A stretch of DNA of 64,000 nucleotides from Amphiscolops sp. MND2022 (lineage: Eukaryota). Made by a program: the position numbers and the translations under genes. Location of the stretch: the NCBI GenBank assembly GCA_964187785.1, contig OZ076409.1:72170001-72234000 (forward strand), given 5' to 3'. Shown piece by piece: positions 2,297 to 60,300 of this stretch. The number at the start of each line of letters is the position of its first letter. The first letter of the stretch is position 1. The notes under the pieces were generated by a model, which saw only the letters and a list, made by a program, of their open reading frames with translations, was not told where the DNA came from and ran no database searches.

Positions 2297-2465
2297 ACAA
2301 CGCCACATAGCGTTCCGACGCCCACCGTCTGTGGGCATGCCGAGGCATGCCCTTCGACGACGTATGCCAAATGAGCCATACCCGCACTCTGGAGTGCGGT
2401 AGCGGCTAGGTGGGCGGGGGTAATTCCCCAACAAAAAAATCGGCCGGCGGGTTGGGTCCTGCCGG
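2297..2465 (+). other. Conserved junction module: terminal arm, GCTAGGTG, head stem-loops (representative copy)
   Basis: ACAACGCC..., palindrome 2333-2352, TTCGACGACG, hairpin CCGCACTC-tg-GAGTGCGG, GCTAGGTG 2405-2412, GGGG-taatt-CCCC, CCGGCGGG-ttgggt-CCTGCCGG 2444-2465. Confidence 0.92.
2333..2352. promoter_or_regulatory. 20-bp palindrome GGGCATGCCGAGGCATGCCC, probable protein-binding site (29 copies)
   Basis: Present before every junction except 31431. It matches the p53-family consensus RRRCWWGYYY x2 at 19 of 20 positions. Function is inferred. Confidence 0.5.
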
Positions 2466-5400
2466 ACGTCAAATAGTGTGAAACATCCAGTAGGAAACGG
2501 CGACATTTATCAGCGATTTTAAAATTGAACCGTTAGAATTCGGACTTGGAGTGCATGCGGCCCCAAAATGCCCATACGAATCGAAGTTCCTGCTGACGTT
2601 AAGCGATAAAAACACTTTATAAAAAGTTATGGCCCATTTTACGTTCACTTAGAGAGGTAAAATGAGGAAAATTTTAACAAAGTTGCTGATAACTCAAAAT
2701 ACATTAATTTTTGGACTTTGACTGTGAAACAAGCTTGGAACCTTCATTTCGTGGCTGTGGCAATGCACTGAACACAAAAGATGTAAAGTTTTCACATTTT
2801 TTGAAAATTCGACATTTTTGAATTTTTTTCACTACTATCAGTACACTATATGTCAAAAACACCTCAGAAAAAAATTTTTATTTGCTTAAATTTAGAAACC
2901 TCGGTATCCATGGTTTCCGTCAGTACCTACTCGCAGCCAAACACTCAACAAATTGCATCCAATGTGAAAATAAAATTTTTTTCGGGGTCATAAGCGTTTC
3001 ACAAGGATTTCTCAACTTAGTATTAATTTACAAAATGGTCATTTTGAACACAATATTTTCATCGAGGCTTGTCGGCTATAGCCTTAATGTTCTAGAACGG
3101 TCCCACTGGCAACGTAGGAACCATTTATAGTAATAGAAAGTTTTAAAAAAATTTTTTCATCCGGTCTTCAGTCATTTTTCAGTCATTCGGAACTTAACTT
3201 AGAAAAATTTCGACCAAAATACCCATTTTTTGTCAGGTCGAAAATTCAAATTCAGATTTTTAAGCAAAATTATTAACTCTGACGTAACCCATGGGGCCCA
3301 TGATACTCAAAACAACAATTGACACTGGTATCAATGGCTCCAATAACATATGAGTCGCGATAAGACGTTATTTTGAGCAATACGTCTCAATTGAGGTAAA
3401 GATCTCGCAAGCCAGCGATCACTGTGAAATGTGATTTCATCAAAAATTTACTCATTTTTGTCAATCACTATGTGCACAGAATGCGTAGGGTGCGTTTCAG
3501 CACTATAATGAGGTATTTGAAAGCATCGAGTTGCTCAAGGGGTGGTATGAGACCTTTTTGTCCCATATACTTCTGTATTTTCCAAAATTTTTAGCCCAAT
3601 ATCTGGAAATACAAACATGACAAAATACTTTCAACTACTTTATTCAAAGGTTACAATATAGATGAACACTGTGGTTGATCAGAAACTTTCATCTCTTTCG
3701 TTTTCCGAAATATTTCCCTTCGCATGTGTTACATTTATAGCAGAAAAAAAATCGATACAGAAAAATACGCTATTTTGCTAATATAGAATCGCAATGATTG
3801 TGCCTAAAAACTCTTTAAACACTTCTAACGCGACCTTACGCACCCAAAAAGATCGAAAAGGCTATTCACAATGGTGACTTGTGCTCTTTCAACGATCCTG
3901 ACTGAACAATTTTCGCAAATTATTCAAGTACCTGTTAACTGAATCTCGTGATAGCCTTTTAAGTTGGCCTTGTGTCAACTTGGGAAGGCTATCACATCAA
4001 AAAATTTTCAACAAAAATACTTTTTGTTTATTGAAAATGACAGTCGATATATAATTTCGTGATTCTATGCTACCGTTAGTACCTTCCATTAAGTCACCTG
4101 ACGATTGCATTCAGTCTTTGATAAATACCTATGAACTCGAAGTCATATTTATAAATTTTTTGCTAAAAATAAACATCAAAATTATCCAAATTTATTAAAA
4201 TTGAGTCTTTATTGTTTTTGTTTTTCTTTTTCTACTGTTATTAGGCCCATCAACTTCCTACAGCCACGCTCTCTGTCATACTGTACAACGCCACATAGTG
4301 TTGCGACGTGCACGGTCTGTGGGCATGCCGAGGCATGCCCTTCGACGACGTATGCCGAATACCGCGGGCCTACGCCCGCGCTCCCCGGCTAGGTGGGCGG
4401 GGGTAATTCCCCAACAAAAATTACGGCCGGCGGGTTGGGTCCTGCCGGACGTTCAAATAGCGCGAAGCATCTAGTAGAAAACAAGGAGTCCCGAAACAGC
4501 GATTTTAAAATTGAACCGTTAGAATTTGGTTTTAGATTGCATGCGGCCCTAAAATCCCCATACGAATGGAAGTTCCTGCTGGCGTTAAGCGATTGAAATA
4601 ATATATAAAAAGTTATGGCCCATTTTTGGGTCACCGAGAAGGTCAAAATGAAGAAAATTTTAACTAAGTTGCTGATAACTCAAAATGTGTTAATTTTTGG
4701 ACTTTGACTGTGAAACAAGCTTGGAACCTTCATTTCTTGGCTGTGGCATTGCACTGAACACAAAAGATGTAAAGTTTTCACATTTTTTGAAAATTCGACA
4801 TTTTTGAATTTTTTTTCACTACTATCAGTACACTATATGTCAAAAACACCTCTGAAAAATTTTTTTATTTGCTTAAATTTAGAAACCTCGGTATCCATGG
4901 TTTCCGTCAGTACCTACTCGCTCCCAAACACTCAACAGTTTGCATCCAATGTGAAAATAAAATTTTTTTCGAGGTCTTAGGTGTTTCACAAGGATTTCTC
5001 AACTTAGTATCAATTTACAAATTGGTCATTTTGAACACATTATTTTCATCGAAGCGTGTCATATACCGCCCTAATGCTCACGAACGGGCCTACTGGCAAC
5101 GTTGGAACAATTTATCGTAATAGAAAGTTAAAAAAATTTTTTCACCCGGTCTTCAGTCATTTTTCACACATTCGGAACTTAACTTAGAAAAATTTCAACC
5201 GAAAAACCCATTTTTTGTCAGGTCGAAAATTCAAAGTCAGCTTTTTAAGCAAAATTATCAACTCTGACGTAACCAGTGGGGCCCATGATACTCAAAACAA
5301 CGATTGGGGTTGGTACCAATGGCTCCAATAACATATGAGTCGCGATAAAGCGTTATTTTGAGCAATATGTCTCAATTGAGGTAAAGATCTCGCAAGCCAG

Positions 5401-6381
5401 CGATCACTGTGAAATGTGATTTCATCAAAAATTTACTCTTTTTTGTCAATCACTATGTGCACAGAATGCGTAGGGTGCGTTTCAGCACTATAATGAGGTT
5501 TTTGAAGGCATCGAGTTGCTCAAGGGGTGGTATGAGACATTTTTGTCCCATATACTACTGTAGTTTCCAAAATTTTTACCCCAATATCTGGAAATACAAA
5601 CTTGACAAAATACTTTCAAGTACTTTATTCAAAGGTTACAATATAGATGAACACTGTGGTTGATAAGAAACTTTCATCTCTTTCGTTTTCGGAAATATTT
5701 CCGTTCGCATGTGTTACATTCATAGCAGAAAAAAAAATCGAAACTGAAAAATACGCTATTTTGCTGATATAGAATCGCAATGATTGTGCCTGAAAACTCT
5801 TTAAACACTTCTAACGCAACCTTACGCACCCAAAATGATCGAAAATGCTATTCACAATGGTGACATGTGCTCTTTCTACGATCCTGGCTGGACAAGGTTT
5901 GCATATTTTTCAAGTACCTGTCAGCTAAATCTTGTGATAGCCTTTTCAGTTGGCCTTGTGTCAACTTGGGAAGGCTATCACATCAAAAAACCATCAACAA
6001 AAATAATTTTTGTTTATTGGATCTTACAGTCGATACTTTTTTTTGGGATTCTATACTACCGTTAGTATATTTCATCAGGTCACATTACGATTGCATTCAG
6101 TCTTTGATAAAAACCTATGAACTCAAAGTCACATTTATATATTTTTTTTGCCAGAAAATAACATCAAAAATATCTAAAATATATAAAATAGAGTCTTTAA
6201 CATTTTTACGTTTCAAGTTTTTGCCGTTATTAGGCCAATCAACGTCCTAGAGCCACATCCTGCCACATACTGTACAACGCCACATAGTGTTGCGACGTGC
6301 ACAGTCTGTGGGCATGCCGAGGCATGCCCTTCGACGACGTATGCCGAATACCGCGGGCCTACGCCCGCGCTCCCCGGCTAG
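2410..6381 (+). repeat. Two family A units (2410-4392, 4393-6381)
   Basis: Collinear ~1.99-kb AT-rich units between junctions 2405, 4388 and 6377. Confidence 0.93.
3948..3995. other. Type I long inverted repeat (representative; one per A or B unit)
   Basis: GTGATAGCCTT-tt-AAGTTG-gccttgtgt-CAACTT-ggg-AAGGCTATCAC, about 440-460 bp upstream of the junction in the A and B units. Confidence 0.9.
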
Positions 6382-9300
6382 GTGGGCGGGGGTAATTCCC
6401 CAACTAAAAATTCGGCCGGCGGGTCGGGTCCTGCCGGCCGTCCAAAATCAAAATCCTACTAGTAGAAAACGGCATGTCAAACGAGCTATTTTTTTATTTA
6501 ACCGTTAGAATTTGGGTTTAGATTGCATGCGGCCATGAAATGGCCATACGAATTGAAGTTCCTGCTGACGTTTTGCGATTGAAACACTTTATAAAAAGTT
6601 ATGGCCAATTTGTCAGTCACCTAGAAGGGCAAAATGAGGAAAATTTTAACAAAGTCGCTGATATCTCAAAATGTGTTAATTTTTGGACTTTGACTGTGAA
6701 ACAAGCTTGGAACCTTCATTTCGTGGCTGTGGCATTGCACTGAACACAAAAGCTGTAAAGTTTTCACATTTTTTGAAAATTCGACATTTTTGAAATTTCT
6801 TTCACTACCATCAGTACCCCATATGTCAAAAACACCTCAGAAAAAAATTTTTATTTGCTTTAAATTGGAAACCTTGGTATCCATGGTTTCTGTCGGAACC
6901 TACTCGCAGCCAAACACCCAACAGTTTGCATCCAATGTGAAATAAAAAATTTTTTCGAGGTCATAAGCGTTTCACAAGGTTTTCATGATTTAGTATTAAA
7001 TTACATAGTGGTCATTTTAAACATAAAATTTTGGTCCAGGCATGTCGGATATAGTCTGAATGCTCACGAACGGTCCTACTGGCAACGTATGAACCATTTA
7101 TAGTAATAAAAAGTATTAAAAAAATTTTTTCACCCGGTCTTCAGTCATTTTTCAGACATTCGGAACTTAACTTAGAAAATTTTCGAACCAAATACCCATT
7201 TTTTGTCAGGTCGAAAATTGAAATTCAGCTAATAAAGCAAAATTTTTTACTCTGACGTAACCAGTGGGGTCCATGATACTCAAAAATACGATTGGGACTG
7301 GTACCAATGGCTCCTATATCATATGAGCCGCGATAAGATGTTATTTCGAGCAATACGTCTCAATTGAGGTAAACATCTCGCAAGCCTGGGATCACAGTGA
7401 ATTGTAATTTTATCAAAATTTTACTCATTTTTGTCAATCACTATGTGCACAGAGTGCGTAGGGGGAGTTGTAGCACTATAATGAGGTTTTTGAAGGCATC
7501 GGGTTGCTCAAGGGGTGGTATGAGACATTTTTTTCCTATATACTACTGTATTTTCCAAAACTTTTAGCCCATTATCTGCAAAAACTAACTTGACAAAATA
7601 CTTTGAGTTACTCTACTCAAAGCTTAGAACATAGATGAACACTGTGGTTGATCAGAAACTATTTACTATTTTGTTTTTAGAAAAAACTGCCTTGCATGTG
7701 TTACACTAGTGGCAGGAAAAATACCAGTAGCTCCAAAAATCACAAATTTGGACGGACAGACTTGCAATGATGCAAAGCAAAAACGTTTCAACAACTTCTG
7801 ACGCCACTTCTTTTACCCAAGAGGTTCGAAAACGCCATTAACAAGGCTGACATTCGCAATAAATAAGATCGAGGTCCATTTACTAACACTTAGGTTTCAA
7901 ATTTGTTTCTGAGAAACCCATTTTTGTCAGGTCGCAATTTCAAATTTAATTTGGGAAGCAAAATTTTTCACTCTGAAGCAAACCGCTGGGCCCAAATTAC
8001 TCAAAAACAACAAAAAGACTATCACCATATGCTCTAATAACATATGAGATGCGACAGTATGCTTTTAACACAAAAACTCTCATCCGAAGTAAACATGTTG
8101 AAAGCCTTGAATCACCGTGAGAAGTGATTTCATCAAAAAATATTTCTTTTTCGTCAATCACTATATACACAAAACCCGTTGTGTTAGTTTCAGCCGTGAA
8201 ATGAGGTTCTACCGTAATATGGGTTGCTCAAGGTGTTGTATAAGAGAAAATCGTCCTCTTTTCTACTAACTTCTTCAAATATTTCGACCCTTTGTCACAC
8301 GAAGTTAAAATTCAAAATCTCTTTGAATTGTTTCTTTAGGTTGGGATGAAGTGGTAGAACAATAACTTTGATCCAAGAATGCTAGTATTGGTGTTTGGAC
8401 CATGTTTGGATGAACAAATCGCAAAATCATGAAAAATTTGTTTCTTTTTTTGGTTATTTTGGCAGTACTAAAAATGTTAGCTGACAAATAATTTTTTCGA
8501 TAGCACCATTGGATTCCGCTCAAAAAGTTGGTTATATGACATGTGTAATAACGCCGTATCTTTTCAATTTAAATATATTTAAAAAGCCAACTTTTTTGAC
8601 CAAAATCCTAAAAATCATACCATTTCCTAAAAAATTTCAAATGCACCCCATTTGACGTATAACAATAGCACAGAAAACTATCATATACCGATCAACTCTA
8701 CTCTCATTGTGGATTATTAGCATTTTGTTTTGAACGAATTTTGATGGATATTAAAAAATTTTGAACCCTCCAAATATGGGCCAAAATTACACGAAAAAAT
8801 TGACCTTAAAATTTTAAAATGTCAAAAAATCATCAAAACTACAGCTTCTTGGGGTTCTATCAACTCCACGTGGTCCACAGAGTACGCTAAAACAGGTTTT
8901 ACCCGTTTTTGAGCAATATGTGAAAAAGCCGACATTTTTGGGAAAGAAAAACATCCCATTTCCTAAAAAAATTCAATTGCACGCCATTTGCCGTATGAGA
9001 ATAGCACGGAAAACTATCACATACCGATCAACTCTACTTTTATTGTAGATGATTAAAAATTAGTTTAAAACAAATTTTGACGGATATTAAAAAATTTTAA
9101 ACCCTTAAAAAATGGGCCAAAATTACACAAAAAAATTGACCTTAAAATTTTAAAATGTCACAAAATCATCAAAACCACAGCTTCTTGGGGTTCTATCAAC
9201 TCCACGTGGTCCACAGAGTACGCTAAAACAGGTTTTACCCGTTTTTGAGCAATATGTGAAAAAGCCGACATTTTTGGGGAAGAAAAAATAGGCATTTCCT

Positions 9301-11130
9301 AAAAAAATCAAATGCACGCCATTTGCCGTATAAGAATAGCACAGAAAACTATCATATACCGATCAACTCTACTCCCATTGTAGATTATTAGAATTTTATT
9401 TTGAATGATTTTTGATGGTTATTAAAAAATTTTGAGCCCCCCAAAAGCGGGCCAAAATTACACGAAAAAATTGACCTTAAAATTTTAAAATGTCAAATAA
9501 TCATCGAAACCACAGCTTCTTGGGGTTCTATCCACTCCACATGGCCCACAGAGTATGCCAAACCAGGTTTTGCGCGTTTTTGAGCAATATTTGAGAAAGC
9601 CGAGTTTTTTGGGGAAGAAAAACATAACATTTCCTAATAAAATTCAAATGCACGCCATTTGGCGTATGACAATAGCACAGAAAACTATCACATACTAATC
9701 AACTCTACTCTCTTTGTAGATCACCAGAGTTTTGCTTAGAATAAATTTTGATGAATATTTGTAAATTTTAAACCCTCCTAATATGGGCCAAAATCACACG
9801 GAAAAATTGACCGTAAGGTATTAAAATGTCAGAAATTCATCAAAACCACAGCTTCTTGGGGTTCTATCATTTCTATATGACTTTCAGAGTATACCAAACA
9901 AGGTATTAACATTGGGCGATAATTAAAAACACCAATTTTATTTTAGAAGAAAACCATAATAAGTTCAATATAAGAAGTGAATCATTCCATATATATACCC
10001 TGTCTTATATTTTAAATTAGCGATAATATATATACTTGATGTTTTTTGAAAGTGAGCTTCATAAGTGGTTGAGATGTGATAATACGTAAATGGATTCCAA
10101 GTTTCATCGAAATGTCAATGGAATACGTCCAATCAACTTCAATCTTAACAATTAGATAACAAAAAACCTAAGTACATTCCATCTCCCCATCGGGGAGATG
10201 AGAATGTACTTTTCAAAAACCAAAAACTTAGATGTTTTTTTTTGTAACACTTACTGTAACTGCTGAAATGATGAAAGAATAATTATGCTTCTAATAACTC
10301 CATGATTTTTTGCTTCAGCATTTTTTTTGCAGAACAAAACCATCAGACATATTTTTCGCAGTTAAGTTCGATCGTATTACCCAGTGAACAAAGGTATGGA
10401 AGGATGTTTACAAGTTGTTTCAAAACTTTCCCGCCTTCCAAAATAATGAAACGTCTACACAACCAAGATAGCAAATGAATGAATGCGGAATGCATCTTAT
10501 TAGATAAGATAAATAACGTGTAGAACTTACCTTTATCTGAAGTTGACGTTGATTTATGATCTTTAGAGGATAGTTTGATTTTTGACCATAATAGTGGGAA
10601 ACTAATTATTATATGAATGATGGCGTGGAAAGCGTTCAGAAATTGTAGTATTTTGGATTCGAGCATGTATGCGTGGGTTCCTTTGGTGGCGTTAGCTTAG
10701 TGTACATGATGGAAGTTTTCGATCTGTTATGATTAATTTTACTCACGAGTCTTTGTTTTTCCTATTTTTTTGCCATTAAGTACATTCATTCTATCCCCTT
10801 TTCTGAGAATGTACGTTTGTCAAATGACTGTCATCCAAATTTTGCATTCCCGAAGAGTTTAAATACATAACACGTGTTTAGCGTTTCCAAATCACAACCG
10901 AGTAACATTCTATTTTTTTTTCTCAAAATTGATAATGGTTTTGATTTTGGTGTCTTCTACTTTCATCATCCATCATAACAACCACCTTACCATGTCTCTC
11001 GCTTGTCTTCATTTTACAACGCCACATAGTGTAGCGACGCCCACAGTCTGTGGGCATGCCGAGGCATGCCCTTCGACGACGTATGCCAAATTTAGCGTTA
11101 GCCCGCGGTCACTACCGCGGTAGCAGCTAG
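6382..11130 (+). repeat. Family C unit (4749 bp)
   Basis: A-like head, diverged internal duplication, four 336-bp subrepeats (~8610-9950), type II hairpin 10171-10210, terminal arm. Confidence 0.92.
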
Positions 11131-14100
11131 GTGGGCGGGGGTAATTCCCCAACAAAAATTACGGCCGGCGGGTTGGGTCCTGCCGGACGTTCAAATAGCG
11201 CGAAGCATCTAGTAGAAAACAAGGAGTCCTGAAACAGCGATTTTAAAATTGAACCGTTAGAATTTGGTTTTAGATTGCATGCGGCCCTAAAATCCCCATA
11301 CGAATGGAAGTTCCTGCTGGCGTTAAGCGATTGAAATAATATATAAAAAGTTATGGCCCATTTTTGGGTCACCGAGAAGGTCAAAATGAAGAAAATTTTA
11401 ACTAAGTTGCTGATAACTCAAAATGTGTTAATTTTTGGACTTTGACTGTGAAACAAGCTTGGAACCTTCATTTCGTGGCTGTGGCATTGCACTGAACACA
11501 AAAGATGTAAAGTTTTCACATTTTTTGAAAATTCGACATTTTTGAATTTTTTTTCACTACTATCAGTACACTATATGTCAAAAATACCTCTGAAAAATTT
11601 TTTTATTTGCTTAAATTTAGAAACCTCGGTATCCATGGTTTCCGTCAGTACCTACTCGCTGCCAAACACTCAACAGTTTGCATCCAATGTGAAAATAAAA
11701 TTTTTTTCGAGGTCTTAGGTGTTTCACAAGGATTTCTCAACTTAGTATCAATTTACAAATTGGTCATTTTGAACACATTATTTTCATCGAAGCGTGTCAT
11801 ATACCGCGCTAATGCTCACGAACGGGCCTACTGGCAACGTTGGGACCATTTATAGTAATAAAAAGTTTTAAAAAAATTTTTTCACCCCGTCTTCAGTCAT
11901 TTTACACACTTTCGGAACTTAACTTAGAAAAATTTCGACCAAAATATCCATTTTTTGTCAGGTCGAAAAATCAAATTCAGATTTTTAAGCAAAATTATTA
12001 ACTCTGACGTAACCCATGGGGCCCATGATACTCAAACCAACGATTGACACTGGTATCAATGGCTCCAATAACATATGAGTCGCGAAAAGACGTTATTTTG
12101 AGCATTACGTCTCAATTGAGGTAAAGATCTTGCAAGCCAGCGATCACTGTGAAATGTAATTTCATCAAAAATTTACTCTTTTTTGTCAATCACTATGTGC
12201 ACAGAATGCGTAGGGTGCGTTTCAGCACTATAATGAGGTTTTTGAAGGCATCGAGTTGCTCAAGGGGTGGTATGAGACACTTTTGTCCCATATACTACTG
12301 TATTTTCCAAAATTTTTAGCCCAATATCTGGAAATACAAACTTGACAAAATACTTTCAACTACTTTATTCAAAGGTTACAATATAGATGAACACTGTGGT
12401 TGATCAGAAACTTTCATCTCTTTCGTTTTCCGAAATATTTCCCTTCGCATGTGTTACATTCGTAGCAGAAAAAAAAATCGAAACTGAAAAATACGCAATT
12501 TTGCTAATATAGAATCGCAATGATTGTGCCTAAAAACTCTTTAAACACTTCTAACGCAACCTTACGCACCCAAAATGATCGAAAATGCTATTCACAATGG
12601 TGACATGTGCTCTTTCTACGATCCTGGCTGGACAAGGTTTGCATATTTTTCAAGTACCTGTCAGCTAAATCTTGTGATAGCCTTTTCAGTTGGCCTTGTG
12701 TCAACTTGGGAAGGCTATCACATCAAAAAACCATCAACAAAAATAATTTTTGTTTATTGGATCTTACAGTCGATACTTTCTTTCGTGATTTTATACTACC
12801 GTTAGTATATTTCATCAGGTCACCTTACGATTGCATTCAGTCTTTGATAAAAACCTATGAACTCAAAGTCACATTTATATATTTTTTTGCCAGAAAAAAA
12901 CCTCAGAAATATCTAAAATATATAAAATAGAGTCTTTAACATTTTTACGTTTCAAGTTTTTGCCGTTCTTAGGCCAATCAACGTCCTAGAGCCACATCCA
13001 GTCATACTGTACAACGCCACATAGTGTTGCGACGTGCAGAGTCTGTGGGCATGCCGAGGCATGCCCTTCGACGACGTATGCCGAATACCGCGGGCCTACG
13101 CCCGCGCTCCCCGGCTAGGTGGGCGGGGGTAATTCCCCAACAAAAATTACGGCCGGCGGGTTGGGTCCTGCCGGACGTCAAATAGCAAAGAATATCTAGT
13201 AGGAAACGGCGACACAGAATCGCGATTTTTAAATCTAACCACAATTTTTTGGACTTGGAGTGCATGCGGCCCTGAAATGCCCATACGAATCGAAGTTCCT
13301 GCTGACATTAAGCGATTGAAATAATATATAAAAAGTTATGGCCCATTTTTCACTCACAAAGAAGGGTAAAATGAGGAAATTTTTAACAAAGTCGCTGATA
13401 ACTCAAAATGTGTTAATTTTTGGACATTGACTGTGAAACAAGCTCGGAACCTTCATTTCGTGGCTGTGGCATTGCACTGAACACAAAAGATGTAAAGTTT
13501 TTACATTTTTTGAAAATTCGAAACTTTTGAAATTTTTTTCACTACTATCAGTACCCCATATGTCAAAAACGCCTCAGAAAAAATTTTTTATTTGCTTTAA
13601 ATTGGAAACCTTGGTATCCATGGTTTCTGTCGGATCCTACTCGCAGTCAAACACCCAACAGTTTGCATCCAATGTGGAAATAAAAATTTTTTCGGGGTCA
13701 TAAGCGTTTCACAAGGATTTCTCAACTTAGTTTCAATTTACAAATTGGTCACATTGAACACATTATTTTCATCGAAGCGCGTCAGATACCGCCCTAAAGC
13801 TCACGAACGGTCCTACTGGCAACGTAGCAACCATTTATAGTAATATAAAAGATTAAAAAAATTTTTTCACCCGGTCTTCAGTCATTTTTCAGTCATTCGG
13901 AACTTAACTTAGAAAAATTTCGACCAAAATACCCATTTTTTGTCAGGTCGAAAAATCAAATTCAGATTTTTAGGCAAAATTATTAACTCTGACGTAACTC
14001 ATGGGGCCCATGATACTCAAAACAACGATTGACACTGGTATCAATGGCTCCAATAACATATGAGTCGCGATCGGACGTTATTTTGAGCAATACGTCTCAA

Positions 14101-15103
14101 TTGAGGTAAAGATCTCGCAAGCCAGCGATCACTGTCAAATGTGATTTCATCAAAAATTTACTCATTTTTGTCAATCATTATGTGCACAGAATGCGTAGGG
14201 TGCGTTTCAGCACTATAATGAGATTTTTGAATGCATCGAGTTGCTCAAGGGGTGGTACGAGTCATTTTTGTCCCATATACTACTGTATTTTCCAAAATTT
14301 TTAGCCCAATATCTGGAAATACAAACTTGACAAAATACTTTCAACTACTTTATTCAAAGGTTACAATATAGATGAACACTGTGGTTGATCAGAAACTTTC
14401 ATCTCTTTCGTTTTCCGAAATATTTTCCTTCGCATGTGTTATATTTGTATCAGAAAAAAAATCGAAACTAAAAAATACGCTATTTTGCTAATATAGAATC
14501 GCAACGATTGTGCCTAAAAACTCTTTAAACACTTCTAACGCGACTTTACGCACCCAAAATGATCGAAAATGCTATTCACAATGGTGACATGTGCTCTTTC
14601 AACGATCCTGGTTGGACAAGGTTTGCATATTTTTCAAGTACCTGTCAGCTGAATCTTGTGATAGCCTTTTAAGTTGGCCTTGTGTCAACTTGGGAAGGCT
14701 ATCACATCAAACAACCATCAACAAAAATAATTTTTGTTTATTGGATATTACAGTTGATACCTTATTTCGTGATTCTATACTACCGTTAGTATATTCCATG
14801 AGGTCACCTTACGATTGCATTCAGACTTTGATGAAAACCTATGAACTCAAAGTCACATTTATATATTTTTTGCCCAAAAAAATCATCAAAAACATCTAAT
14901 ACATATAAAATTGAGTCTTTAACTTTTTTACGTTTCAAGTTTCTGCCGTTATTAGGCCAATCAACTTCCTACAGCCACGCTCTCTGTCATACTGTACAAC
15001 GCCACATAGTGTTGCGACGTGCACGGTCTGTGGGCATGCCGAGGCATGCCCTTCGACGACGTATGCCGAATACCGCGGGCCTACGCCCGCGCTCCCCGGC
15101 TAG
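11131..15103 (+). repeat. Two family A units (11131-13118, 13119-15103)
   Basis: Junctions 11126, 13114 and 15099; collinear with the other A units. Confidence 0.93.
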
Positions 15104-47421: not shown

Positions 47422-50400
47422 GTGGGCGGGGGTAATTCCCCAACAAAAAAATCGGCCGGCGGGTCGGGTCCTGCCGGCCGTCCAAAATCAAAATCCTCCT
47501 AGTAGAAAACGGCATGTCAAACGAGCTATTTTTTTATTTAACCATACGAATTTCACCATTTTTTGCATGCGGCCCTGAAATGGCCATACGAGACGAAGTT
47601 CCTGCTGACGTTTTGCGATGTAAATGTTTTATATAAAGTTATGGCCGATTTGTCATTCACCTAGAAGGGTAAAATGAGGAAAATTTTAACAAAGTCGCTG
47701 ATAACTCAAAATGTGTTAATTTTTGGACTTTGACTGTGAAACAAGCTTGGAACCTTCATTTCGTGGCTGTGGCATTGCATTGAACACAAAAGATGTAAGG
47801 TTTTTACATTTTTTGAAAATTCGACATTTTTGAAAATTTTTTCACTACTATCAGTACCCCATATGTCAAAAACACCTCAGAAGAAAATTTTTATTTGCTT
47901 TAAATTGAAAACCTTGGTAGCCATGGTTTCTGTCGGAACATACTCGCTGCCAAACACCCAACAGTTTGCATCCAGTGTGAATTTAAAAATTTTTTCGAGG
48001 TCTTAGGTGTTTCACAAGGATTTCTCAACTTAGTATCAAATTACAAATTGGTCATTTTAAACACATTATTTTCATCGAAGCGTGTCAGATACCGCCCTAA
48101 TGCTCACGAACGGGCCTACTGGCAACGTTGGAACAATTTATCGTAATAGAAAGTTTTAAAAAAAATTTTTCGCCCGGTCTTCAGTCATTTTTCACACATT
48201 CGGAACTTAACTTAGAAAAATTTCAACCGAAAAACCCATTTTTTGTCAGGTCGAAAATTCAAAGTCAGCTTTTTAAGCAAAATTATCAACTCTGACGTAA
48301 CCAGTGGGGCCCATGATACTCAAAACAACGATTGGGGTTGGTACCAATGGCTCCAATAACATATGAGTCGCGATAAGACGTTATTTTGAGCAATATGTCT
48401 CAATTGAGTTAAAGATCTCGCCAACCAGTGATCACTGTGAAATGTAAATTCAATAAAAATTTACTCATTTTCGTCAATCACCATGTGCACAGAGTGCGTA
48501 GGGTGAGTTCCAGCACTATAATGAGGTTTTTGAAGGCATCGGGTTGCTCAAGGGGTGGTATGAGACATTTTTTTCCTATATACTACTGTATTTTCCAAAA
48601 GTTTTAGCCCATTATCTGGAAAAACTAACTTGACAAAATACTTTCAACAACTTTTTTCAAAGGTTACAATGTAGATGAACCCAGTGGTTGATCAAAAATT
48701 TTCATCTCTTTCGGTTTCCGAAATAATTCCCTTCGAATGTGTTACATTTGTAGCAGGAAAAAAACCGAAACTAAAAAATACGCGATTTTGCTGAGATAGA
48801 ATCGCAATGGTTGCCCCTAAAATCTCTTTAAATACTTCTAACGCGACCTTATGGACCCAAAAAGATTGAAAATGCCATTCACAATGCTGACATGTGCTCT
48901 TTCGACGATCCTGGCTAGACAAGTTTTGCATATTTTTCAAGTACCTGTTAACTGAATTTTGTGATAGCCTTTTAAGTTGGCCTTGTGTCAACTTGGGAAG
49001 GCTATCACATCAAAAAACTTTCATCAAAAATACTTTTTGTTTATACAATAATGTAGTCGATAGTTATTTTCGTGATTTTACACTACCGTTAGTACCTTCC
49101 GCCAGGTCAGCTGACGATTGCATGCTGTCTTTGATAAAAACGTATGAACACCAAGAAAATTTTGTTGTATTTTTGTTGAAGAAAAGTATTAATAAATAAT
49201 AAAAATATAATTCTAACCTTAAACAACTATAAATTTGCTTAACCGTTATTAGTCCTACCACCTATCATCAGCCTATGCCATGGCCCGGTGATTAGTAGTA
49301 CAACGCCACATAAAGTAGCGACGCCCACAGTCTGTGGGCATGCCGAGGCATGCCCTTCGACGACGTATGGCAATTTTAGCGTAGCCCGCGGTCACTACCG
49401 CGGTAGCAGCTAGGTGGGCGGGGATTTCACCCCAAAAAAAACTAGAGCGGCGGGTAGGGTCCTGCCGCGAACTCCCAAAACAGCTAACGCTTATAAGAAA
49501 AAGCACACCCTCAACAGCCGATTTTAAAATCTAACCGTACGATTTTTCTCATTTTTTGCATGCGGCCCTAATTTGCCCATACGAGACGAAGTTCCTGCTG
49601 ACGTTAAGCCCTAAAAACATTATAAAAAAAGTTATGGCCAATTTTTGGTCCCCATTAGATGTAAAAATGATGAAATTTTTCATAAAAGGGCAAATATCTC
49701 AAAATGCAATAATTTTTGGAAATTGACTGTGAAACAAGCTTGGAACCTTCATTTCGTGGCTGTGGCATTGCACTGAACACAAAAGATGTAAAGTTTTTAC
49801 ATTTTTTGAAAATTTGAGATTTTTGAAATTTTTTTCACTACTATCAGTACCATATATGTCAAAAACACCTCAGAAAATAATTTTTATTTGCTTTAACTTG
49901 GAAACCTTGGTATCCATGGTTTCTGTCGGAACCTACTCGCAGCCAAACACCCAACAGTTTGCATCCAATGTTAAAATAAAAATTTTTTCTGGGTCATAAG
50001 CGTTTCACAAGGATTTCTCAACTTAGTATTAATTTACAAAATGGTCATTTTGAACACAAGATTTTCATCGAGGCTTGTCGGCTATAGCCTTAATGTTCTA
50101 GAACGGTCCCACTGGCAACGTAGGAACCATTTATAGTAATAGAAAGTTTTTTAAAAAAATTTTCACCCGGTCTTCAGTCATTTTTCAGTCATTCGGAACT
50201 TAACTTAGAAAAATTTCGTCTCAAAAACCCATTTTTCGTCAGGTCGAAAATTGAAATTCTGCTTTTGAAGCACAAATATGCACTCTGACGTAACCAGTGG
50301 GACCAATGATACTCAACAACACCATTGAGACTGGTATCAGTGGCTCCAATAACATATGAGCCGCGATAAGACGTTATTTTTAACAAAACTGTTCAAATGA

Positions 50401-51391
50401 AGTAAACATCTCGGAACCCTTGGATCACAGTGAATGTTGATTTGAACAAAAATTTACTCTTTTTTGTCAATCACTATGTACACAGAATGCTTAGGGTGAG
50501 TTTCAGCACTACTATGAGGATTTTGAAGGAATCGGGTTGCTCAAGGCGTGGTATGAGACACTTTTGTCTCATATACTACTGCTTTTTTGAATAACTCTTC
50601 GCCCAATATCTCACAAAGCAAACCTAAAAAATACTTTCCGATACTTAATTCACTTCTTAGAATATAATTGAACATTGTGGTTGATCAGAAACTCTCAACT
50701 CTTATGTTTTTCAATAAATATTCCTTCGCATGTGTCCCATTTGTAGCATTAAAAAAAGTTGAAGCTAAAAAATACGCTATTTTGCTAAGATAGAATTACA
50801 AGTATTGTAACCAATATATCTTTAAATACTTCTAACGCCACCTTACGGACCCAAGATGATTGAAAATACTGTTCACAAGGATCACATGTGCTCTTTCTGC
50901 GATCTAGGCTGCTCATTTTTTGCTTAGTTCACATGTAGCTGTTAACTGTATCTTGTGATAGCCTTTTAAGTTGGCCTTGTGTCAACTTGTGAAGGCTATC
51001 ACATCAAAAAACTATAAACAAAAGTACGTTTTGTTTACAGGGTATAGCTTTCGATAGTTATTTTTGTGATTCTGTCCAACGTTGGTACCTTCCATGATGT
51101 CAGCTAATGATAGCATTCAGTCTTCGATAAAAACCTATGAACTCCAAGCACATTTAGATATTTTTTGCTATAAAAAGTCATCAAAAAGATCGAAATTATT
51201 TAATATAGAGTCTTTAACGTTTGTATTTTTCGTTTTTCTACCGTTGTTAGGCCCATGAACATCTTACAGCCACGCTGTCTGTCATTAGTACAACGCCACA
51301 TAGTGTTGCGACGTCCACCGTCCGTGGGCATGCCGAGGCATGCCCTTCGACGACGTATGCCAAATATACGCATTAGCGCGGTAGCAGCTAG
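47422..51391 (+). repeat. Two family A units (47422-49413, 49414-51391 divergent)
   Basis: Junctions 47417, 49409 and 51387. Confidence 0.92.
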
Positions 51392-54300
51392 GTGCGGGGG
51401 GGTAACCCCAACAAATATATTGGAGGATTCGGGTAGGGTCCTGAATCCGATTTTAACTCTAATAGCTATCGATAGGAAATCTTGCAAAAATTTCGGGATC
51501 TCGTGATCTAACCATAGGATTTTAAAGTTGGAGCGGCCCCCACCAGATTTTCCGAAAATTAGCGCCCCCCACCGGGTTCCATACCCCGGGAAATTTTTTT
51601 CTGGCCACACGGGCGACCGTTAGGGGGTCATTTTAGGGGTAAAATTCATATTGGGCCACATAACTTTTTTTCTGTTGATTTAAAACTTTGGAACCCTGCT
51701 AAAAGTTTCTTGACCGTGTTGCAGGGGCCCCGAAGGTCCAAACCAAATTTTTCTATCTTGAAGCTATCTCCAAGTACCCCCCCGCTCAAACCGTTATTTT
51801 TCCGGAAACGCAGGTTTTTGACCCGGAAGGAGTCGTCTGAGCGCGGGGTCGTTAGGTGATGTATTGGGGACGGCCTTGAGACGAAGTGGGGGACAAGTAG
51901 TTTGCCAACCTCAATTTACCCCCCGGACGGGAAATGACCGTTATATGAGCGTGAAAAATGCCCCCCTCCACGTTTTACCGCTATTTCCGGTGTGAAGGAG
52001 TGGGAGTAGCGCGTCGGGTGTTATATAACAAAAGTAGGTTTAGACAAGGACCTATCGGAAACATGTAGTTTGGGACCCCCTGGACCAACCCGTTAGCGGG
52101 AAATGGGGCTTCCGCCTCCTTTTTTTAGTGCTAAAACCGTAAAATGGGCATTGAGGGGTAAATATCTCGTGAACGCGTGGAGCAATCGTGTCCATCACTA
52201 CTACAAGGTTTCATACCCATGATATGGTGCCTTCAGGGGGGCAAACAGATTTCCGCTATCTATCACCGTTACCGACTTGGCCCCCCAGCCTAACCGCTAT
52301 GTGACCGGAAATGTCACTTTTTGAGCCCAAAGGGTCGGTCCCAGCCGGGGAACGTTAGGTAACTTATTGTAGTACTCAATGAGACGAGTTGGGGGATATA
52401 GTTTTAGTCACCCCCCGTTACCCCTTGGGACCGGAAATGACCGTTATGTGGGTAAAATTGCAATTTTTATACTTTTTCAAGTGTATTTAGGTGCGGAAGG
52501 AGTGGTAATAGGTGCTTGGACACTATATGAGGTAAGGGAGGACGTGAGGCGTGCATTCGGAAATAACCGTTATGTTGACCCTAAAGTCCCCCTGGTACCG
52601 TAAACGACCGGAAATGGTCAAATTTTGTGTCTATTGGGTACAAATGTTTTGTATTTTGTAGATAAAAGTATCTATTAGGTGTTTCGACGGTCTACAGTAG
52701 TGAACATAGTCATGAAACCTTGTGGGGGGTAACGGTATATAGCACCGGAAGTCAAAACGTTGGAGACAGGATAGGTTTTTTGGTTTTAAAATGTCTTTCG
52801 GCGTAATTTTTCCGACTCTTGTGGACTATTTTTAAAAATTAAAGTTTTTCCATATAGTTTCAGAGACTCCGAAACCTCAACCAACATAACCGTTACCTTA
52901 TGATAGCCTTTCAAGTTGGCCTGGTGTCAACTTGGAAGCGCTATCCTTCTGAAATCGTTAATCAAGAGTGTTTTTGGGTAGGTATATATTGCATTAGTAC
53001 CAATTAGAGCTTCATCAACAGTGTATCAACGACAAAAACTATGCCGTCATGATTCCGTTATTAGAATCATAGTGAGCAAATTGTTGAAAAAATGGTTTTT
53101 TCCATACAAAATGTGTCCTAAATGCCAGGCAACCTATTTACCTAACAAATGGTATTAATTGGAATGTTTGTAACAGATTTATAAAAGTTCAAATTGATAA
53201 TTACATTTCATTATGGAAGCTGAAACGTCATATTTTAGTTTAATTAACGTCAACGCCACACACTTTACATCAACGCACACCGTCTGTGGGCATGCCGAGG
53301 CATGCCCTTCGACGACGTATGACAAATCCATATCAAACGACGCCCGTACATCCCGGGCTAGGTGCGGGGGGGAAACCCCATCCCTTATCTTGGAGGATTC
53401 GGGTAGGGTCCTGAATCCGAGTTCAGTGCCGCCAGCTCTCAGTAGAAATCTGGGCATTTTTTTGCGATCTCGTGATCTAACCATAGGATTTTAAAGTTGG
53501 AGCGGCCCCCACCAGATTTTCCAAAGTTATTCGCCCCCCACCGGGTTCCAGCGTGATTGAAATATTCTGACGGGGTACACGGGCGACCGTTAGGGGTCAT
53601 TTTGGGGGTAAAATTTATATCCGGTCGCATAACTTTTTTCCTGTTGGATTAAAACTTTGGGACCCTGCTAAAAGTTTCTTGACCGTGTTGCGGGGGCTCC
53701 GGAGGTCCAAACCAAATTTTTCTATCTTGAAGCTATCTCCAAGTACCCCCCCGCCCAAACCGTTATTTTTCCGGAAACGCAGGTTTTTGACCCGGAAGGA
53801 GTCGTCTGAGCGCGGGGTCGTTAGGTGATGTATTGGGGACGGCCTTGAGACGAAGCGGGGGATATATAGTTTGCCGACCCCAGTTTACCCCCCGGACGGG
53901 AAATGACCGTTATATGAGCGGGAAAAATGCCCCCCTCCACGTTTTACCGCTATTTCCGGTGTGAAGGAGTGGGAGTAGCGCTTCGGGTGCCATATATCAA
54001 AAATAGGTTTAGACAAGGACCTATCGGAAACATGTAGTTTGGGACCCCCTGGTCCAACCCGTTAGCGAGAAATGGGGCTTCCGCCTCCTTTTTTTACTGC
54101 TAAAACCGTAAAATGGGCGTTGAGGGGTAAATATCTCGTGAACGCGTGGAGCAATCGTGTCCATCACTACTACAAGGTTTCATACCCATGATATGGTGCC
54201 TTCAGGGGGGCAAACAGATTTCCGCTATCTATCACCGTTACCGACTTGGCCCCCCAGCCTAACCGCTATGTGACCGGAAATGTCACTTTTTGAGCCCAAA

Positions 54301-57300
54301 GGGTCGGTCCCAGCCGGGGAACGTTAGGTAACTTATTGTAGTACTCAATGAGACGAGTTGGGGGATATAGTTTCAGTCAACCCCCGTTACCCCTTGGGAC
54401 CGGAAATGACCGTTATGTGGGTAAATTTGCAATTTTTATACTCTTTGAAGTGTATTTAGGTGCGGAAGGAGTGGTAATAGGTGCTTGGACACTATATGAT
54501 GTAATGGAGGTCGTGAGGAGAGCATTCGGAAATAACCGTTATGTTGACCCCAAAGTCCCCCTGGTACCGTTAACGACCGGAAATGGCCAAATTTTGTGTC
54601 TATTGGGTACAAATGTTTGGTATTTTATGGATAAAAGTACCTGGAAGGTGTTTTAAAGGCCTCCAGAAGTGAACATAGTCATGAAACCTTGTGGGGGGTA
54701 ACGGTATATAGCACCGGAAGTCCAAACCGTTGGTCACAGAATAGGTTTTTTGGTTTCAATATGTCTTTAGGCATAGTTTTGTGGGTTGAATCGTCATAAT
54801 ATCAACTAATACGGACTTTTTTCGGAAATAAAATTTTTTCACATTAGTTTCAGGGACCTCCAATGCTTCAGTCAAAATAACCGTTACATTTTGATAGCCT
54901 TTCAAGTTGACCTGGTGTCAACTTGGAAGGGCTATCCTTCTAAAATCGTTAATCAACAGTGTTTTTGGGTAGGTATATGTTGCATTAGTACCAATTAGAG
55001 CTTCATCAACAGTTTGCCAACGGCAAAAACGATGTCGTGATAATTCCGTTATAAAAATATTAGTTAACAAATTGTTTTCAAAGTTGATTTTTTCCATTAA
55101 AAATGTGTCCTAATGCCACCAAATTGAATAAAATAATAAATGGTATTGACTAAAACTAAATAACAATGAAAAAGAAGATCAACATTTTTATTAGGTCTCA
55201 TTATGGAAGCAGAAACCTCACGTTTTAACTTAATTAACGTCAACGCCACATACTTTACATCAACGCCCACCGTCTGTGGGCATGCCGAGGCATGCCCTTC
55301 GACGACGTATACCAAACAACCTCCATATCTACACCCACCCGCGGTAGCAGCTAGGTGCGGGGGGGAAACCCCAACAAAATTTTTGGAGGATTCGGGTAGG
55401 GTCCTGAATCCGATTTTAACTCTAATAGCTATCGATAGGAAATCTTGCAAAAATTTCGGGATCTCGTGATCTAACCATAGGATTTTAAAGTTGGAGCGGC
55501 CCCCACCAGATTTTCCAAAGTTATTCGCCCCCCACCGGGTTCCAGCGTGACTGAAATATTTTGACGGGGTACACGGGCGACCGTTAGGGGTCATTTTGGG
55601 GGTAAAATTTATAAAAGTTCGCATAACTTTTTTCCTGTTGGATTAAAACTTTGGGACCCTGCTAAAAGTTTCTTGACCGTGTTGCGGGGGCTCCGGAGGT
55701 CCAAACCAAATTTTTCTATCTTGAAGCTATCTCCAAGTACCCCCCCGCCCAAACCGTTATTTTTCCGGAAACGCAGGTTTTTGACCCGGAAGGAGTCGTC
55801 TGAGCGCGGGGTCGTTAGGTGATGTATTGGGGACGGCCTTGCGACGAAGCGGGGGATATATAGTTTGCCGACCCCAGTTTACCCCCCGCACGGGAAATGA
55901 CCGTTATATGAGCGGGAAAAATGCCCCCCTCCACGTTTTACCGCTATTTCCGGTGTGAAGGAGTGGGAGTAGCGCTTCGGGTGTTATATAACAAAAATAG
56001 GTTTAGACAAGGACCTATCGGAAACATGTAGTTTGGGACCCCCTGGACCAACCCGTTAGCGGGAAATGGGGCTTCCGCCTCCTTTTTTTACTGCTAAAAC
56101 CGTAAAATGGGCATTGAGGGGTAAATATCTCGTGAACGCGTGGAGCAATCGTGTCCATCACTACTACAAGGTTTCATACCCATGATATGGTGCCTTCAGG
56201 GGGGCAAACAGATTTCCGCTATCTATCACCGTTACCGACTTGGCCCCCCAGCCTAACCGCTATGTGACCGGAAATGTCACTTTTTGAGCCCAAAGGGTCG
56301 GTCTCAGCCAGGGAACGTTAGGTAACTTATTGTAGTACTCATTGAGACGAGTTGGGGGATATAGTTTCAGTCAACCCCCGTTACCCCTTGGGACCGGAAA
56401 TGACCGTTATGTGGGTAAATTTGCATTTTTTATACTCTTTGAAGTGCATTTATGTGCGGAATGAGTGGTAATAGGTGCTTGGACACTATATGAGGTAAGG
56501 GAGGACGTGAGGCGAGCATTCAAAAATAACCGTTATGTTGACCCCAAAGTCCCCCTGGTACCGGAAGTGACCGGAATTTGTCAAATTTTGTGTTTTTAGG
56601 GTACAAATGTTTAGTATTTTGTAGATAAAAGTATCTATTAGGTGTTTCGACGGTCTGCAATAGTGAACATAGTCATGAAACCTTGTGGGGGGTAACGGGG
56701 TATTTAGCACCGGAAGTCCAAACCGTTGGACACAGGATAGGTTTTTGGTTTGAAAATGTCTTTCGGCGTACTTTTGTCGACTATTATGGACTATTATTTA
56801 AAATTAAAGTTTTTCCATATAGTTTCAGAGACTCCGAAACCTCAACCAACATAACCGTTACATTTTGATAGCCTTTCAAGTTGGCCTGGTGTCAACTTGG
56901 AAGCGCTATCCTTCTGAAATCGTTAATCAAGAGTGTTTTTGGGTAGGTATATATTGCATTAGTACCAATTAGAGCTTCATCAACAGTGTATCAACGACAA
57001 AAACTATGCCGTCATGATTCCGTTATCAGAATCATAGTGAGCAAATTGTTGAAAAAAATGGTTTTTTCCATACAAAATGTGTCCTAAATGCCAGGAAACC
57101 TATTTACTTAAAAAATGGTATTGATTGGAATGTATGTAACAGATTTATAAAAGTTCAAATTGATTATTACGTTTCATTATGGAAACTGAAACGTAATATT
57201 TTAGTTTAATTAACGTCAACGCCACACACTTTACATCAACGCCCACCGTCTGTGGGCATGCCGAGGCATGCCCTTCGACGACGTATACCAAATACATACC

Positions 57301-60300
57301 CAAACGACGCCCGTACATCCCGGGCTAGGTGCGGGGGGGTAACCCCAACTTTTTTCTTGGAGGAATCGGGTAGGGTCCTGATTCCGAGCTTAGTGCCGCC
57401 AGCTATCGTTAAAAACCCATACCTTTTAAACCCGATCTCGGGAACTAACCACGCCCCTTCTTTAATTTTTTGGCCCCCACTCACTTTTTGAGAGTAGATC
57501 GCCCCCCACTGGGTTCCAAGTTGGGCAAAAATGGAGGTCATGGGTAACGGGGACCGTTAAGGGGTAACTCAGGGGGTAAAATTTATTTTTTGCGTCATAT
57601 CTTTTCCCCCCGTGGATTTAGCGCTTCCGGTCAGCAGACAAAACCTCATGTACGTGATAAGGGGCCTCCGTAGGTCCAAACAAAATTTTTCTATCATGCA
57701 CCGTTACGGACTTGCCCCCCCGGCCCAACCGTTATTTTGCCGGAAATTGCCTTTTTTGACAGGGAAGGAGTCGTCTGAGCACGGAGTCGTTTGGTAATGT
57801 TTTGTAGTGCATCTGGAGACGTGTTGGGGGACATGTAGTTTGCCGACCCCAGTTTACCCCTCGGACGGGAAATGACCGTTATGTGAGTTTTAAAAATGCC
57901 CCCCTTCAATTTTCCCCGCAATTTCCGGTGTGAAGGAGTGGGAGTAGGGTGTCGGGTGCCATATATCAAAAGTAGGTTTAGACAAGGACCAACCGGAAAC
58001 ATGTGGTTTCGGACCCCCTGACCCAACCCGTTAGCCGCTATTAGGGTGATCGCCTCCTTTTTTTGCTGTTAAAACCGGAAAACGGGCATTGAGGGGTAAA
58101 TATCTCGTGAACGCGTGGAGCAATCGTGTCCATCACTACTACAAGGTTTCATACCCATGATATGGTGCCTTCAGGGGGGCAAACAGATTACCGCTATCTA
58201 TCACCGTTACCGACTTGGCCCCCCAGCCTAACCGCTATGTGACCGGAAATTGCACTTTTTGAGCCCAAAGGGTCGATCCTAGCCGGGCAACGATAGGTAA
58301 CATATTGTAGTACTCATTGAGACGAGTTGGGGGATCTAGTTTCAGTCACCCCCGTTACCCCTTGAGACCGGAAATGACCGTTATGTGAGTAGAATTGCAA
58401 TTTTTATACCTTTTGAAGGGCATTTAGAAGCGGAAGGAATGGTAATAGGTGCTTGGACACTATATGATGTAATGGAGGTCGTGAGGAGAGCATTCGGAAG
58501 TAACCGTTACGTTGACCCCAAAGTCCCCCTGGTACCGTTAACAACCGGAAATGGCCAGATTTTGTGTTTGTAGGGTACAAATGTTTGGTATTTTATGGAT
58601 AAAAGTACCTGGAAGGTGTTTTAAAGGCCTCCAGAAGTGAACATAGTCAAGAAACTTTGTGGGGGGTAACGGTATATAGCACCGGAAGTCCAAACCGTTA
58701 GTTACAGAATAGGTTTTTTGGTTTCAAAATGTCTTTAGGCGTAGTTTTGTGGGTGGAATCGTCATAATATCAACTAATACGGACTTTTTTCGGAAATAAA
58801 ATTTTTTCACATTAGTTTCAGGGACCTCCAATGTTTCAGTCAACATAACCGTTACATTTTGATAGCCTTTCAAGTTGGCCTGGTGTCAACTTGGAAGGGC
58901 TATCCTTCTAAAATCGTTAATCAAGAGTGTTTTTGGGTAGGTATATGTTGCATTAGTACCAATTAGAGCTTCATCAACAGTTTGCCAACGGCAAAAACGA
59001 TGTCGTGATAATTCCGTTATAAGAATATTAATTAACAAATTGTTTACAAAGTTGATTTTTTTCATTTAAAATGTGTCCTAATGCCACCAAATTGAATAAA
59101 ATAATAAATGGTATTGACTAAAACTACATAACATTGAAAAAGAACATCAACATTTTTATTAGGTCTCATTATGGAAGCTGAAACCTCACGTTTTAACTTG
59201 ATTAACGTCAACGCCACATACTTTACATCAACGCCCACCGTCTGTGGGCATGCCGAGGCATGCCCTTCGACGACGTATACCAAACAATCTCCATATCTAC
59301 ACCCGATTGCGGTAGCAGCTAGGTGCGGGGGGGAAACCCCAACAAAATATTTGGAGGATTCGGGTAGGGTCCTGAATCCGAGTTCAGTGCTGCCAGCTTT
59401 CGTTAAGAAAATTTGGATAGGATTCGGGATCTCGTGATCTAACCATAGGATTTTAAAGTTGGAGCGGCCCCCACCAGATTTTCCGAAAATTAGCGCCCCC
59501 CACCGGGTTCCATACCCCGGAAAATTTTTTTCTGGCCACACGGGCGACCGTTAGGGGGTCATTTTAGGGGTAAAATTCATATTGGGCCACATAACTTTTT
59601 TTCTGTTGATTTAAAACTTTGGGACCCTGCTAAAAGTTTCTTGGCCGTGTTGCAGGGGCCCCGGAGGTCCAAACCAAATTTTTCTATCTTGAAGCTATCT
59701 CCAAGTACCCCCCCGCCCAAAACGTTATTTTTCCGGAAACGCAGGTTTTTGACCCGGAAGGAGTCGTCGGAGCGCGGGGTCGTTAGGTGATGTATTGGGG
59801 ACGGCCTTGAGACGAAGTGGGGGACATGCAGTTTGCCAACCCCAGTTTACCCCCCGGACGGGAAATGACCGTTATATGAGCGGGAAAAATGCCCCCCTCC
59901 ACGTTTTACCGCTATTTCCGGTGTGAAGGAGTGGGAGTAGCGCGTCGGGTGCCATATATCAAAAGTAGGTTTAAACAAGGAACTATCGGAAACATGTGGT
60001 TTGGGACCCCCTGGACCAACCCGTTAGCAGGAAATGGGGCTTCCGCCTCCTTTTTTTACGGTTAAAACCGGAAAATGGGCATTGAGGGGTAAATATCTCG
60101 TGAACGCGTGGAGCTACGGTGTCCATCACTACTACAAGGTTTCATACCCATGATATGGTGCCTTCAGGGGGGCAAACAGATTTCCGCTATCTATCACCGT
60201 TACCGACTTGGCCCCCCAGCCTAACCGCTATGTGACCGGAAATGTCACTTTTTGAGCCCAAAGGGTCGGTCCCAGCCGGGGAACGTTAGGTAACTTATTG

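Follow-up and report, generated by a model that had tools for sequence, protein, structure and literature searches.

What do the front ends of a long chain of repeated units have in common, and what might read it? This question is raised by a 64,000-nucleotide (nt) stretch of the genome of Amphiscolops sp. MND2022, here called the window (G000:C1:72170001-72234000 of a 1.07-Gb genome; other C and L labels denote contigs and loci of the same genome). The window is a chain of several unit families, 1070 to 4764 bp in length, joined at 30 CTAG|GTG[GC] junctions, and a hairpin lies shortly after each junction, in the head of the unit. The units are Helitron-like, and they belong to about four thousand mobile-element copies with this front hairpin that are stacked head to tail in arrays of up to ~6 Mb. 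Sequence comparison makes it likely that the hairpin is a left-end cis signal of these non-autonomous elements, through which the Rep-helicase protein (RepHel) of autonomous elements would recognize the origin on the transferred + strand.

1..64000, + strand: window array of non-autonomous Helitron-like units, part of a ~6-Mb array in a single orientation (G000:C1 ~70.45-76.48 Mb)
2410, 4393, 6382, 11131, 13119, 15104, 16383, 18373, 20361, 22343, 24331, 29095, 30366, 31436, 32715, 34703, 36689, 38681, 40673, 42661, 47422, 49414, 51392, 53362, 55355, 57329, 59323, 61298, 62581, 63861, + strand: first bases of the heads at the 30 junctions
2406..2413, + strand: example junction, CTAG|GTGG, the tail tetramer of one unit and the first bases of the next; putative nick and landing site
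2333..2352, + strand: example of the conserved tail hairpin, a palindrome with a GA centre, found in 29 of 30 window tails

Every sample from ~70.45-76.48 Mb of C1 that held junctions had them on the + strand, with interruptions present, and none were found in 8 samples outside this array. Smaller arrays lie on several other contigs. Genome-wide, the head pattern matched 4176 times versus 128 times for a reversed-pattern control, and the tail motif occurs in 4878 copies. No open reading frame in the window is longer than 175 amino acids (aa), and the window units are therefore considered non-coding.

The head hairpin was confirmed, and its stem shows covariation between families. All six hairpins quoted in a preliminary description of this DNA are present, position for position, and they are listed here with further examples.

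2417..2429, + strand: small first hairpin between the junction and the main hairpin, in the two 2-kb families
2442..2467, + strand: head hairpin of the 1.98-kb family A, loop TTGGGT, G.T under the top
15153..15173, + strand: head hairpin of the 1279-bp family, core 55 nt past the junction, weaker stem
29130..29151, + strand: head hairpin of the 1271-bp unit at 29095-30365
30397..30428, + strand: head hairpin of the 1070-bp family, loop GAGGGT, stem bulged
36727..36748, + strand: head hairpin with loop TAGGGG
49447..49468, + strand: head hairpin of the 1978-bp unit at 49414-51391
51425..51448, + strand: head hairpin of the second 2-kb family, stem GGATTC/GAATCC
57362..57385, + strand: head hairpin with the compensatory swap GGAATC/GATTCC
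61336..61353, + strand: weak head hairpin of the 1283-bp unit at 61298-62580

The pattern GG[TG][ATC]GGG[TCG]CC matched 30 times on the + strand of the window and never on the - strand, and the hairpin core started 39 to 55 nt past the junction (40 nt in 24 of 30 copies). Stem changes with pairing retained, as first described, were borne out. Among the 11 distinct window hairpins, 86.9% of cells were paired and 5 of 9 pairs were changed on both sides. None of 500 shuffles reached the covariation score or the percentage paired, 61 matched the count of doubly changed pairs, and slid registers were only 35 to 57% paired. Likewise, the 77 distinct hairpins from the window and other loci formed 32 arm clusters (one chance row, L009, was removed beforehand), in which native arms folded at -8.24 kcal/mol versus -5.72 kcal/mol for swapped arms; 0 of 20000 permutations were as low, a statistic that carries no formal phylogenetic correction for these mutually related clusters. 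Weaker pairing was indeed seen in the families singled out earlier (at 15.1, 30.4, and 61.3 kb). The stability of single copies was modest (z, -2.9 to +0.9 in 9 + strand folds).

The idea of a fixed GGG-TAGGGT-CC top did not hold. The loop was TAGGGT in just 11 of 30 window copies, the others being TTGGGT (10), TCGGGT (5), TAGGGC (2), GAGGGT (1), and TAGGGG (1), and one family has an unrelated top. The invariant part is GG-nn-GGG-n-CC, while the loop and the pair beneath the top differ by family. A recurrent G.T at this pair is a good description of the window (24 of 30 copies) but not of the 32 clusters (G.T, 9; G-C, 22; T.C, 1), where it is family specific; clusters that lack it usually have bulges or internal loops below the top instead. 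Folds of the + strand use 30 G.T pairs and those of the - strand use 3. However, swapped-arm controls also favor the + strand in 75% of cases, so that the G.T argument for a strand is weak when taken alone. A selected + strand structure read by an enzyme thus retains the support of covariation and, as described below, of the hairpin's presence on units that encode a HUH-Rep/helicase, but gains little from the G.T bias.

RepHel frames were located within the arrays by profile search. All 12 sampled autonomous units (12 to 17 kb; one of them includes a following short unit missed by the unit pattern) begin with GTG[GC] and the head hairpin, with the RepHel frame likewise on the + strand. The frames are intact (2350 to 2603 aa) and encode a HUH-Rep fused to a Pif1 helicase, most with a C-terminal GIY-YIG domain. 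They fall into four types, mutually 29 to 31% identical, and the GIY-YIG domain is clear in three of these and weak in the fourth. Motif I, HUH, and YxxxY are conserved, with T975, E1050, Q1052, H1060, H1062, Y1231, and Y1235 invariant in 26 aligned proteins. Both Helitron_like_N and PF05970 scored above the cut-off in 3 of 3 array RepHels scanned, and Pif1 chains and Helraiser (7lcc) were matched. The scanned frames yielded no reverse transcriptase domain. Three of the four types also encode a 320- to 350-aa protein that, judged by its features and a moderate model (pLDDT 64, 7 sequences), probably has an RPA/CST-like OB fold; the model matched RPA, CST, and POT1 OB folds with a best E value of 9e-5 and a TM score of just 0.2 to 0.3, values that do not distinguish between OB families. 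No such frame was found by tblastn in the 2350-aa type.

Sequence also ties some short units to autonomous ones. Two RepHel types share 75% of their first 1100 bases and are the source of the 1.28-kb families, and across bases 253 to 765, the unit at 61298-62580 matches an autonomous unit's left end with 85% identity. The 2350-aa and 2603-aa types (L030:874-1980 and L053) have left ends that are 75% identical over ~750 bases and RepHels that are 30% identical, which suggests end-swapping between autonomous types. A 200- to 290-aa SGNH/GDSL-like frame (L021:359-979 and L039:6783-7658, both on the - strand; Pfam E value of 0.11 only) lies downstream of RepHel in some units and upstream in others. 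Behind a head type outside the unit library, L192:4943-10000 holds a further long frame (>1686 aa), likely from another autonomous type.

The target is CTNG^[AGT]T, without duplication, a rule like that of IS91; known Helitrons instead use A^T or T^T. In 159 junction rows, the tetramer immediately 5' of the head was CTAG or CTGG in 154, CTTG in 4, and CTCG in 1. Heads with host flanks had been picked by their upstream letters, which presupposes CTNG; the unbiased test is genome-wide, where CTNG preceded 4048 of the 4176 head matches and the remaining 128 equal the control background (128). The tail tetramer belongs to the unit, as one element was preceded by CTAG in one array and by CTGG in a different one. 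Target duplication as the source of CTNG was ruled out because, in 6 of 12 solo copies, the tetramer upstream was not the one at the unit's own tail. Downstream of the cut, 39 free tails of one type were followed by a non-G base, 36 of them with T as the second base, and 27 further tails were followed by GT and a non-G base; together these give the [AGT]T half of the target, which the junction itself fits. Within units, CTNG[AGT]T was depleted in the element orientation (51 versus 117 expected; rank 4 of 1024 like patterns) and less so on the other strand (100 versus 123). Terminal inverted repeats were not detected in 98 head-tail pairs (longest inverted match of 8.50 versus 8.46 in the control).

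Units move singly, as seen from solo copies, a precise empty site, nested insertions, and near-identical copies without shared neighbors. The 1978-bp unit at 49414-51391 has solo copies that are 99% identical at C2:16.31 Mb and C3:15.15 Mb, and the 1271-bp unit at 29095-30365 has a 100% identical counterpart on C6 with different neighbors. An 8-unit array at C1:29.53 Mb interrupts a repeat exactly after CTAG; 9 of 11 paralogues of its flank aligned to the flank end, and in 4 of them the next 10 bases were those found behind the array, with no likeness beyond these. In L056, two other units were inserted into a 1289-bp unit at an internal CTTG and CTGG with zero bases lost, and an internal site used there was also hit in another copy. 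Among 176 units, 38 pairs were at least 98% identical end to end, with shared neighbors in 0 of 55 comparisons, and only 1 of 150 adjacent pairs reached that identity. Intact RepHel frames and copies that are 99 to 100% identical suggest recent activity.

Junctions are preferred landing sites. For one tail type, a head followed 1998 times, versus 66 tails counted as free (39 non-G and 27 GT plus non-G), although some free classes were uncounted. As a six-base site is common in a 1-Gb genome, something further presumably marks the junctions, and the best candidate is the head, since nearly all families have it in common while the tails fall into at least three unrelated types.

In the proposed mechanism, RepHel would nick at CTNG^GTG, the helicase would peel off the + strand, and the hairpin would fold in the peeled strand. 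A second nick at the tail CTNG would close a circle, which would then join a target nicked at CTNG^. Each array junction would copy the circle junction, hairpin included, and would for that reason be a preferred target, so that arrays would grow by single insertions of any family. In assemblies, array junctions look like circle junctions. In the accessible parts of the literature, HUH enzymes often recognize hairpins, and Helraiser forms circles with a precise junction of which only the plus strand is cut (PMC5876387). Transfer of the + strand would fit the orientation of the RepHel frames, the CTRR tail, the tetramer before the cut, and the G.T bias, and the GIY-YIG domain could open the target. 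Least certain among these steps is the use of the head hairpin itself as the landing signal, for which we regard the chances as about evenly divided. The preliminary description had left open whether the structure acts in single-stranded DNA or RNA; DNA is favored because insertions are precise, with neither duplication nor A-tail, and Rfam gives nothing. Its interpretation was partly supported, and the autonomous partners and the target rule were absent from it.

Several observations weigh against this account. No autonomous parent was found for the main 1.98-kb window family; all that it has in common with the 12 autonomous units is the tail motif. A family with a GTGGAGG head, located in arrays (L027:7652, L036:990, and L143:858), has an AT-rich hairpin at the usual place with an unrelated top. 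The depletion of CTNG[AGT]T gives an orientation, not the identity of the cut strand. Like families cluster locally (60 of 134 adjacent pairs versus 13 expected), and local homogenization could also produce such clustering. The polarity test leaned toward head-directed landing but was weak: the first unit was closer than the last to sampled relatives in 6 of 8 arrays, with 1 tied and 1 reversed (a value of 0.199 for the first unit at C1:70.45 was excluded as an artefact of cut sequence), and one of those six last units is probably an unsampled autonomous element. Furthermore, old solo copies with heads drew no insertions.

In another view, a single-strand binder with an OB fold, of the element or the host, rather than RepHel at the nick, would bind the hairpin at a later stage, in the displaced strand or circle, and would serve protection or second-strand priming. 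The predicted OB-fold protein of three autonomous types would suit such a role, as would a G-rich loop like the telomeric strands in POT1 and CST entries and a hairpin placed 26 to 65 nt inside the end rather than at it. However, the 2350-aa type has no such frame by tblastn, the preference for junctions would be left unexplained, and RPA-like genes are known Helitron passengers that, in the accessible part of one account, are thought to be non-essential (PMC11417382); we consider this role unlikely. Alternatively, the tail (a palindromic hairpin plus CTAG) or array chromatin might direct landing, and the head hairpin would then have a role in excision or termination only. The tail hairpin covaries too; of the 98 units with this hairpin, 87 have G-C as the closing pair and 11 have A-T. 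In addition, one 3-unit array has its young unit in last place, and the few off-junction insertions seen were all at most 200 nt away from a junction, to one side or the other. Against this stand the variety of unrelated tail types beside a nearly universal head, and the first units of large arrays, which are mostly 98 to 99% identical to sampled copies. Direction by tail or chromatin is accordingly quite improbable.

A role of the hairpin in unit RNA, as a protein site or part of a ribozyme in units that spread via RNA, seems slightly more improbable still. The + strand G.T pairs would be G.U in RNA, 16 of 32 clusters have GA in both arms at the foot of the stem, the RNA folds are stable, and the loop is similar to UAGGGU, an hnRNP A1 site. 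But the whole window gave 0 Rfam matches at the gathering score, insertions lack the A-tail and target duplication, and the coding partners are RepHels. That the arrays are ordinary satellites, grown by unequal exchange or as rolling-circle concatemers with a hairpin inherited without selection, is contradicted in the sampled DNA and is extremely unlikely, even though families cluster locally and, in the accessible parts of two accounts, rolling-circle amplification is given as the usual origin of tandem Helitron arrays (10.1101/2024.11.21.624632, PMC12001565). Near-identical copies share no neighbors and neighbors are not near-identical, nested and solo insertions exist, and the arms covary across the 32 clusters. 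Origin recognition by RepHel remains the reading that we prefer.

Unit lengths in the window and all sampled arrays cluster at ~1.07, 1.28, 1.39, 1.98, and 4.76 kb, and two barely related families are both 1.97 to 2.01 kb long. The 4.75-kb units contain an internal repeat.

8611..9869, no strand assigned: 336-bp internal repeat, 3.6 to 4 copies; likewise at 1-1212, 26561-27912, and 44891-46157

In sequencing run X1, one contig spans the 51392 junction with a different tail type, a contig that may not be independent of the assembly; run X2 gave short pieces only. At L020 (C1:23.97-23.98 Mb), two arrays face each other over a 200-base N gap, which may be an assembly join.

At the order level, the elements are Helitron-like: the Rep has motif I, HUH, and two tyrosines, Pif1 is fused to it, and insertion is precise without target duplication. 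A FastTree analysis of 439 Rep and helicase columns separated 28 array-type, 25 HLE1-like, and 28 HLE2-like proteins in three clean splits (support of 1.0, 1.0, and 0.99). The array RepHels fell outside the 25 HLE1-like proteins (support of 1.0) and outside the 28 sampled HLE2-like proteins. This tree of 81 proteins is unrooted and without an outgroup, its references are relatives of in-genome queries and were not chosen by Repbase name, and fungal, algal, and plant HLE2 subgroups are probably unsampled. The RepHel profile matched 392 clusters at an E value of 1e-30 or better, and one relative of the lineage is in Styela clava. These protein comparisons place the RepHel branch apart from the HLE1 and HLE2 proteins sampled, and its relatives elsewhere number in the hundreds. 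Among 20 relatives scanned, 14 had GIY-YIG, 2 had Helitron_like_N, and none had DUF6570, which was likewise absent from 3 of 3 array RepHels and from 9 of 9 relatives in another set, while it was present in 4 of 4 in-genome HLE2-like frames. No locus was obtained for the DNA around distant RepHel relatives in two metagenome scans, and the ends and hairpin are known from this genome. Intact HLE1-like (L040) and HLE2-like (L041, L043, L045, L047, and L048) RepHel frames also occur in the genome, with no array junctions in the stretches fetched.

No description of the RepHel lineage or of mixed junction-targeted Helitron arrays was found in the literature covered, which did not extend to Repbase Reports, most subscription journals, and supplements; within that coverage, this appears to be a variant of Helitron-like element not described before. 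The supplements of the HELIANO and Paramecium papers may bear on its novelty, and the lineage may correspond to the unclassified clusters of HELIANO or to the Paramecium clade. Taken alone, the hairpin is a modest discovery; what is surprising is the lineage, together with its junction-targeted megabase arrays. More broadly, and as a tentative view that we place somewhat below even chances, this could be an overlooked, widespread Rep-Pif1-GIY-YIG lineage with an IS91-like CTNG rule and a head hairpin that serves as both origin and landing pad; its families would stack into polar, cassette-like megabase arrays, maybe forming a chromosome domain such as a centromere, and the element's OB protein may read the telomere-like loop.

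Helitron target choice is poorly understood, and a defined six-base site with a hairpin makes it testable. For a RepHel branch mostly missed by standard profiles (Helitron_like_N in 2 of 20 relatives), the analysis supplies ends, a target rule, and a candidate structure for recognition, and it shows how transposons can build up a megabase array without concatemer amplification or unequal exchange. A junction-seeking single-strand integrase that leaves no duplications could also be useful as a tool.

Comparison with known systems, as far as the accessible parts of the cited accounts go, reveals likenesses to several. With HLE1 and Helraiser the units share a Y2 HUH Rep fused to Pif1, the absence of target duplication, non-autonomous units with the ends of autonomous ones, an RPA-like gene downstream of RepHel, and a 3' CTRR after a hairpin (CTAG or CTGG in 154 of 159 rows). 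They differ from them in heads that start with GTG[GC], not TC, and in a target of CTNG^[AGT]T, not A^T (PMC11417382, PMC5876387), as well as in the conserved left-end hairpin, the C-terminal GIY-YIG, the separate tree branch, and mixed arrays built at junctions. HLE2 elements (Helitron2, Helentron, FoHeli, proto-Helentron, and HelenSM92) likewise have a large single frame and a hairpin close to the 5' end; GIY-YIG was captured by one HLE2 family of Sphagnum, and an OTU domain occurs in some relatives (PMC11417382, PMC5148889). In contrast to HLE2, the units described here lack terminal inverted repeats (asymmetric and 12 to 16 nt in HLE2), DUF6570, and a T^T target, and their branch is separate from the sampled HLE2.

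The Paramecium Helitrons, a third clade (PMC13085455), resemble these elements in lying outside HLE1 and HLE2, in fixed orientation, target specificity, and covarying terminal stem-loops, and in having many non-autonomous copies. Compared by description only, they differ in CCAA ends and insertion into telomeric repeats, and GIY is mentioned 0 times in PMC13085455. IS91 likewise uses a tetranucleotide target by the origin end (CTTG, also CTCG), with a like tetranucleotide at the terminus, subterminal palindromes, and no duplication; however, it is bacterial and has no helicase, and arrays are not mentioned in the accessible part of that account (10.1101/2025.01.24.634351), whereas the Rep described here is of the Helitron type. 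Tandem transposon dimers (10.1101/158386) share the principle that the target survives each insertion and a further target arises with it, which leads to head-to-tail copies. Their model requires target duplication and same-family dimers that expand by exchange, whereas here many families stack singly to megabase size.

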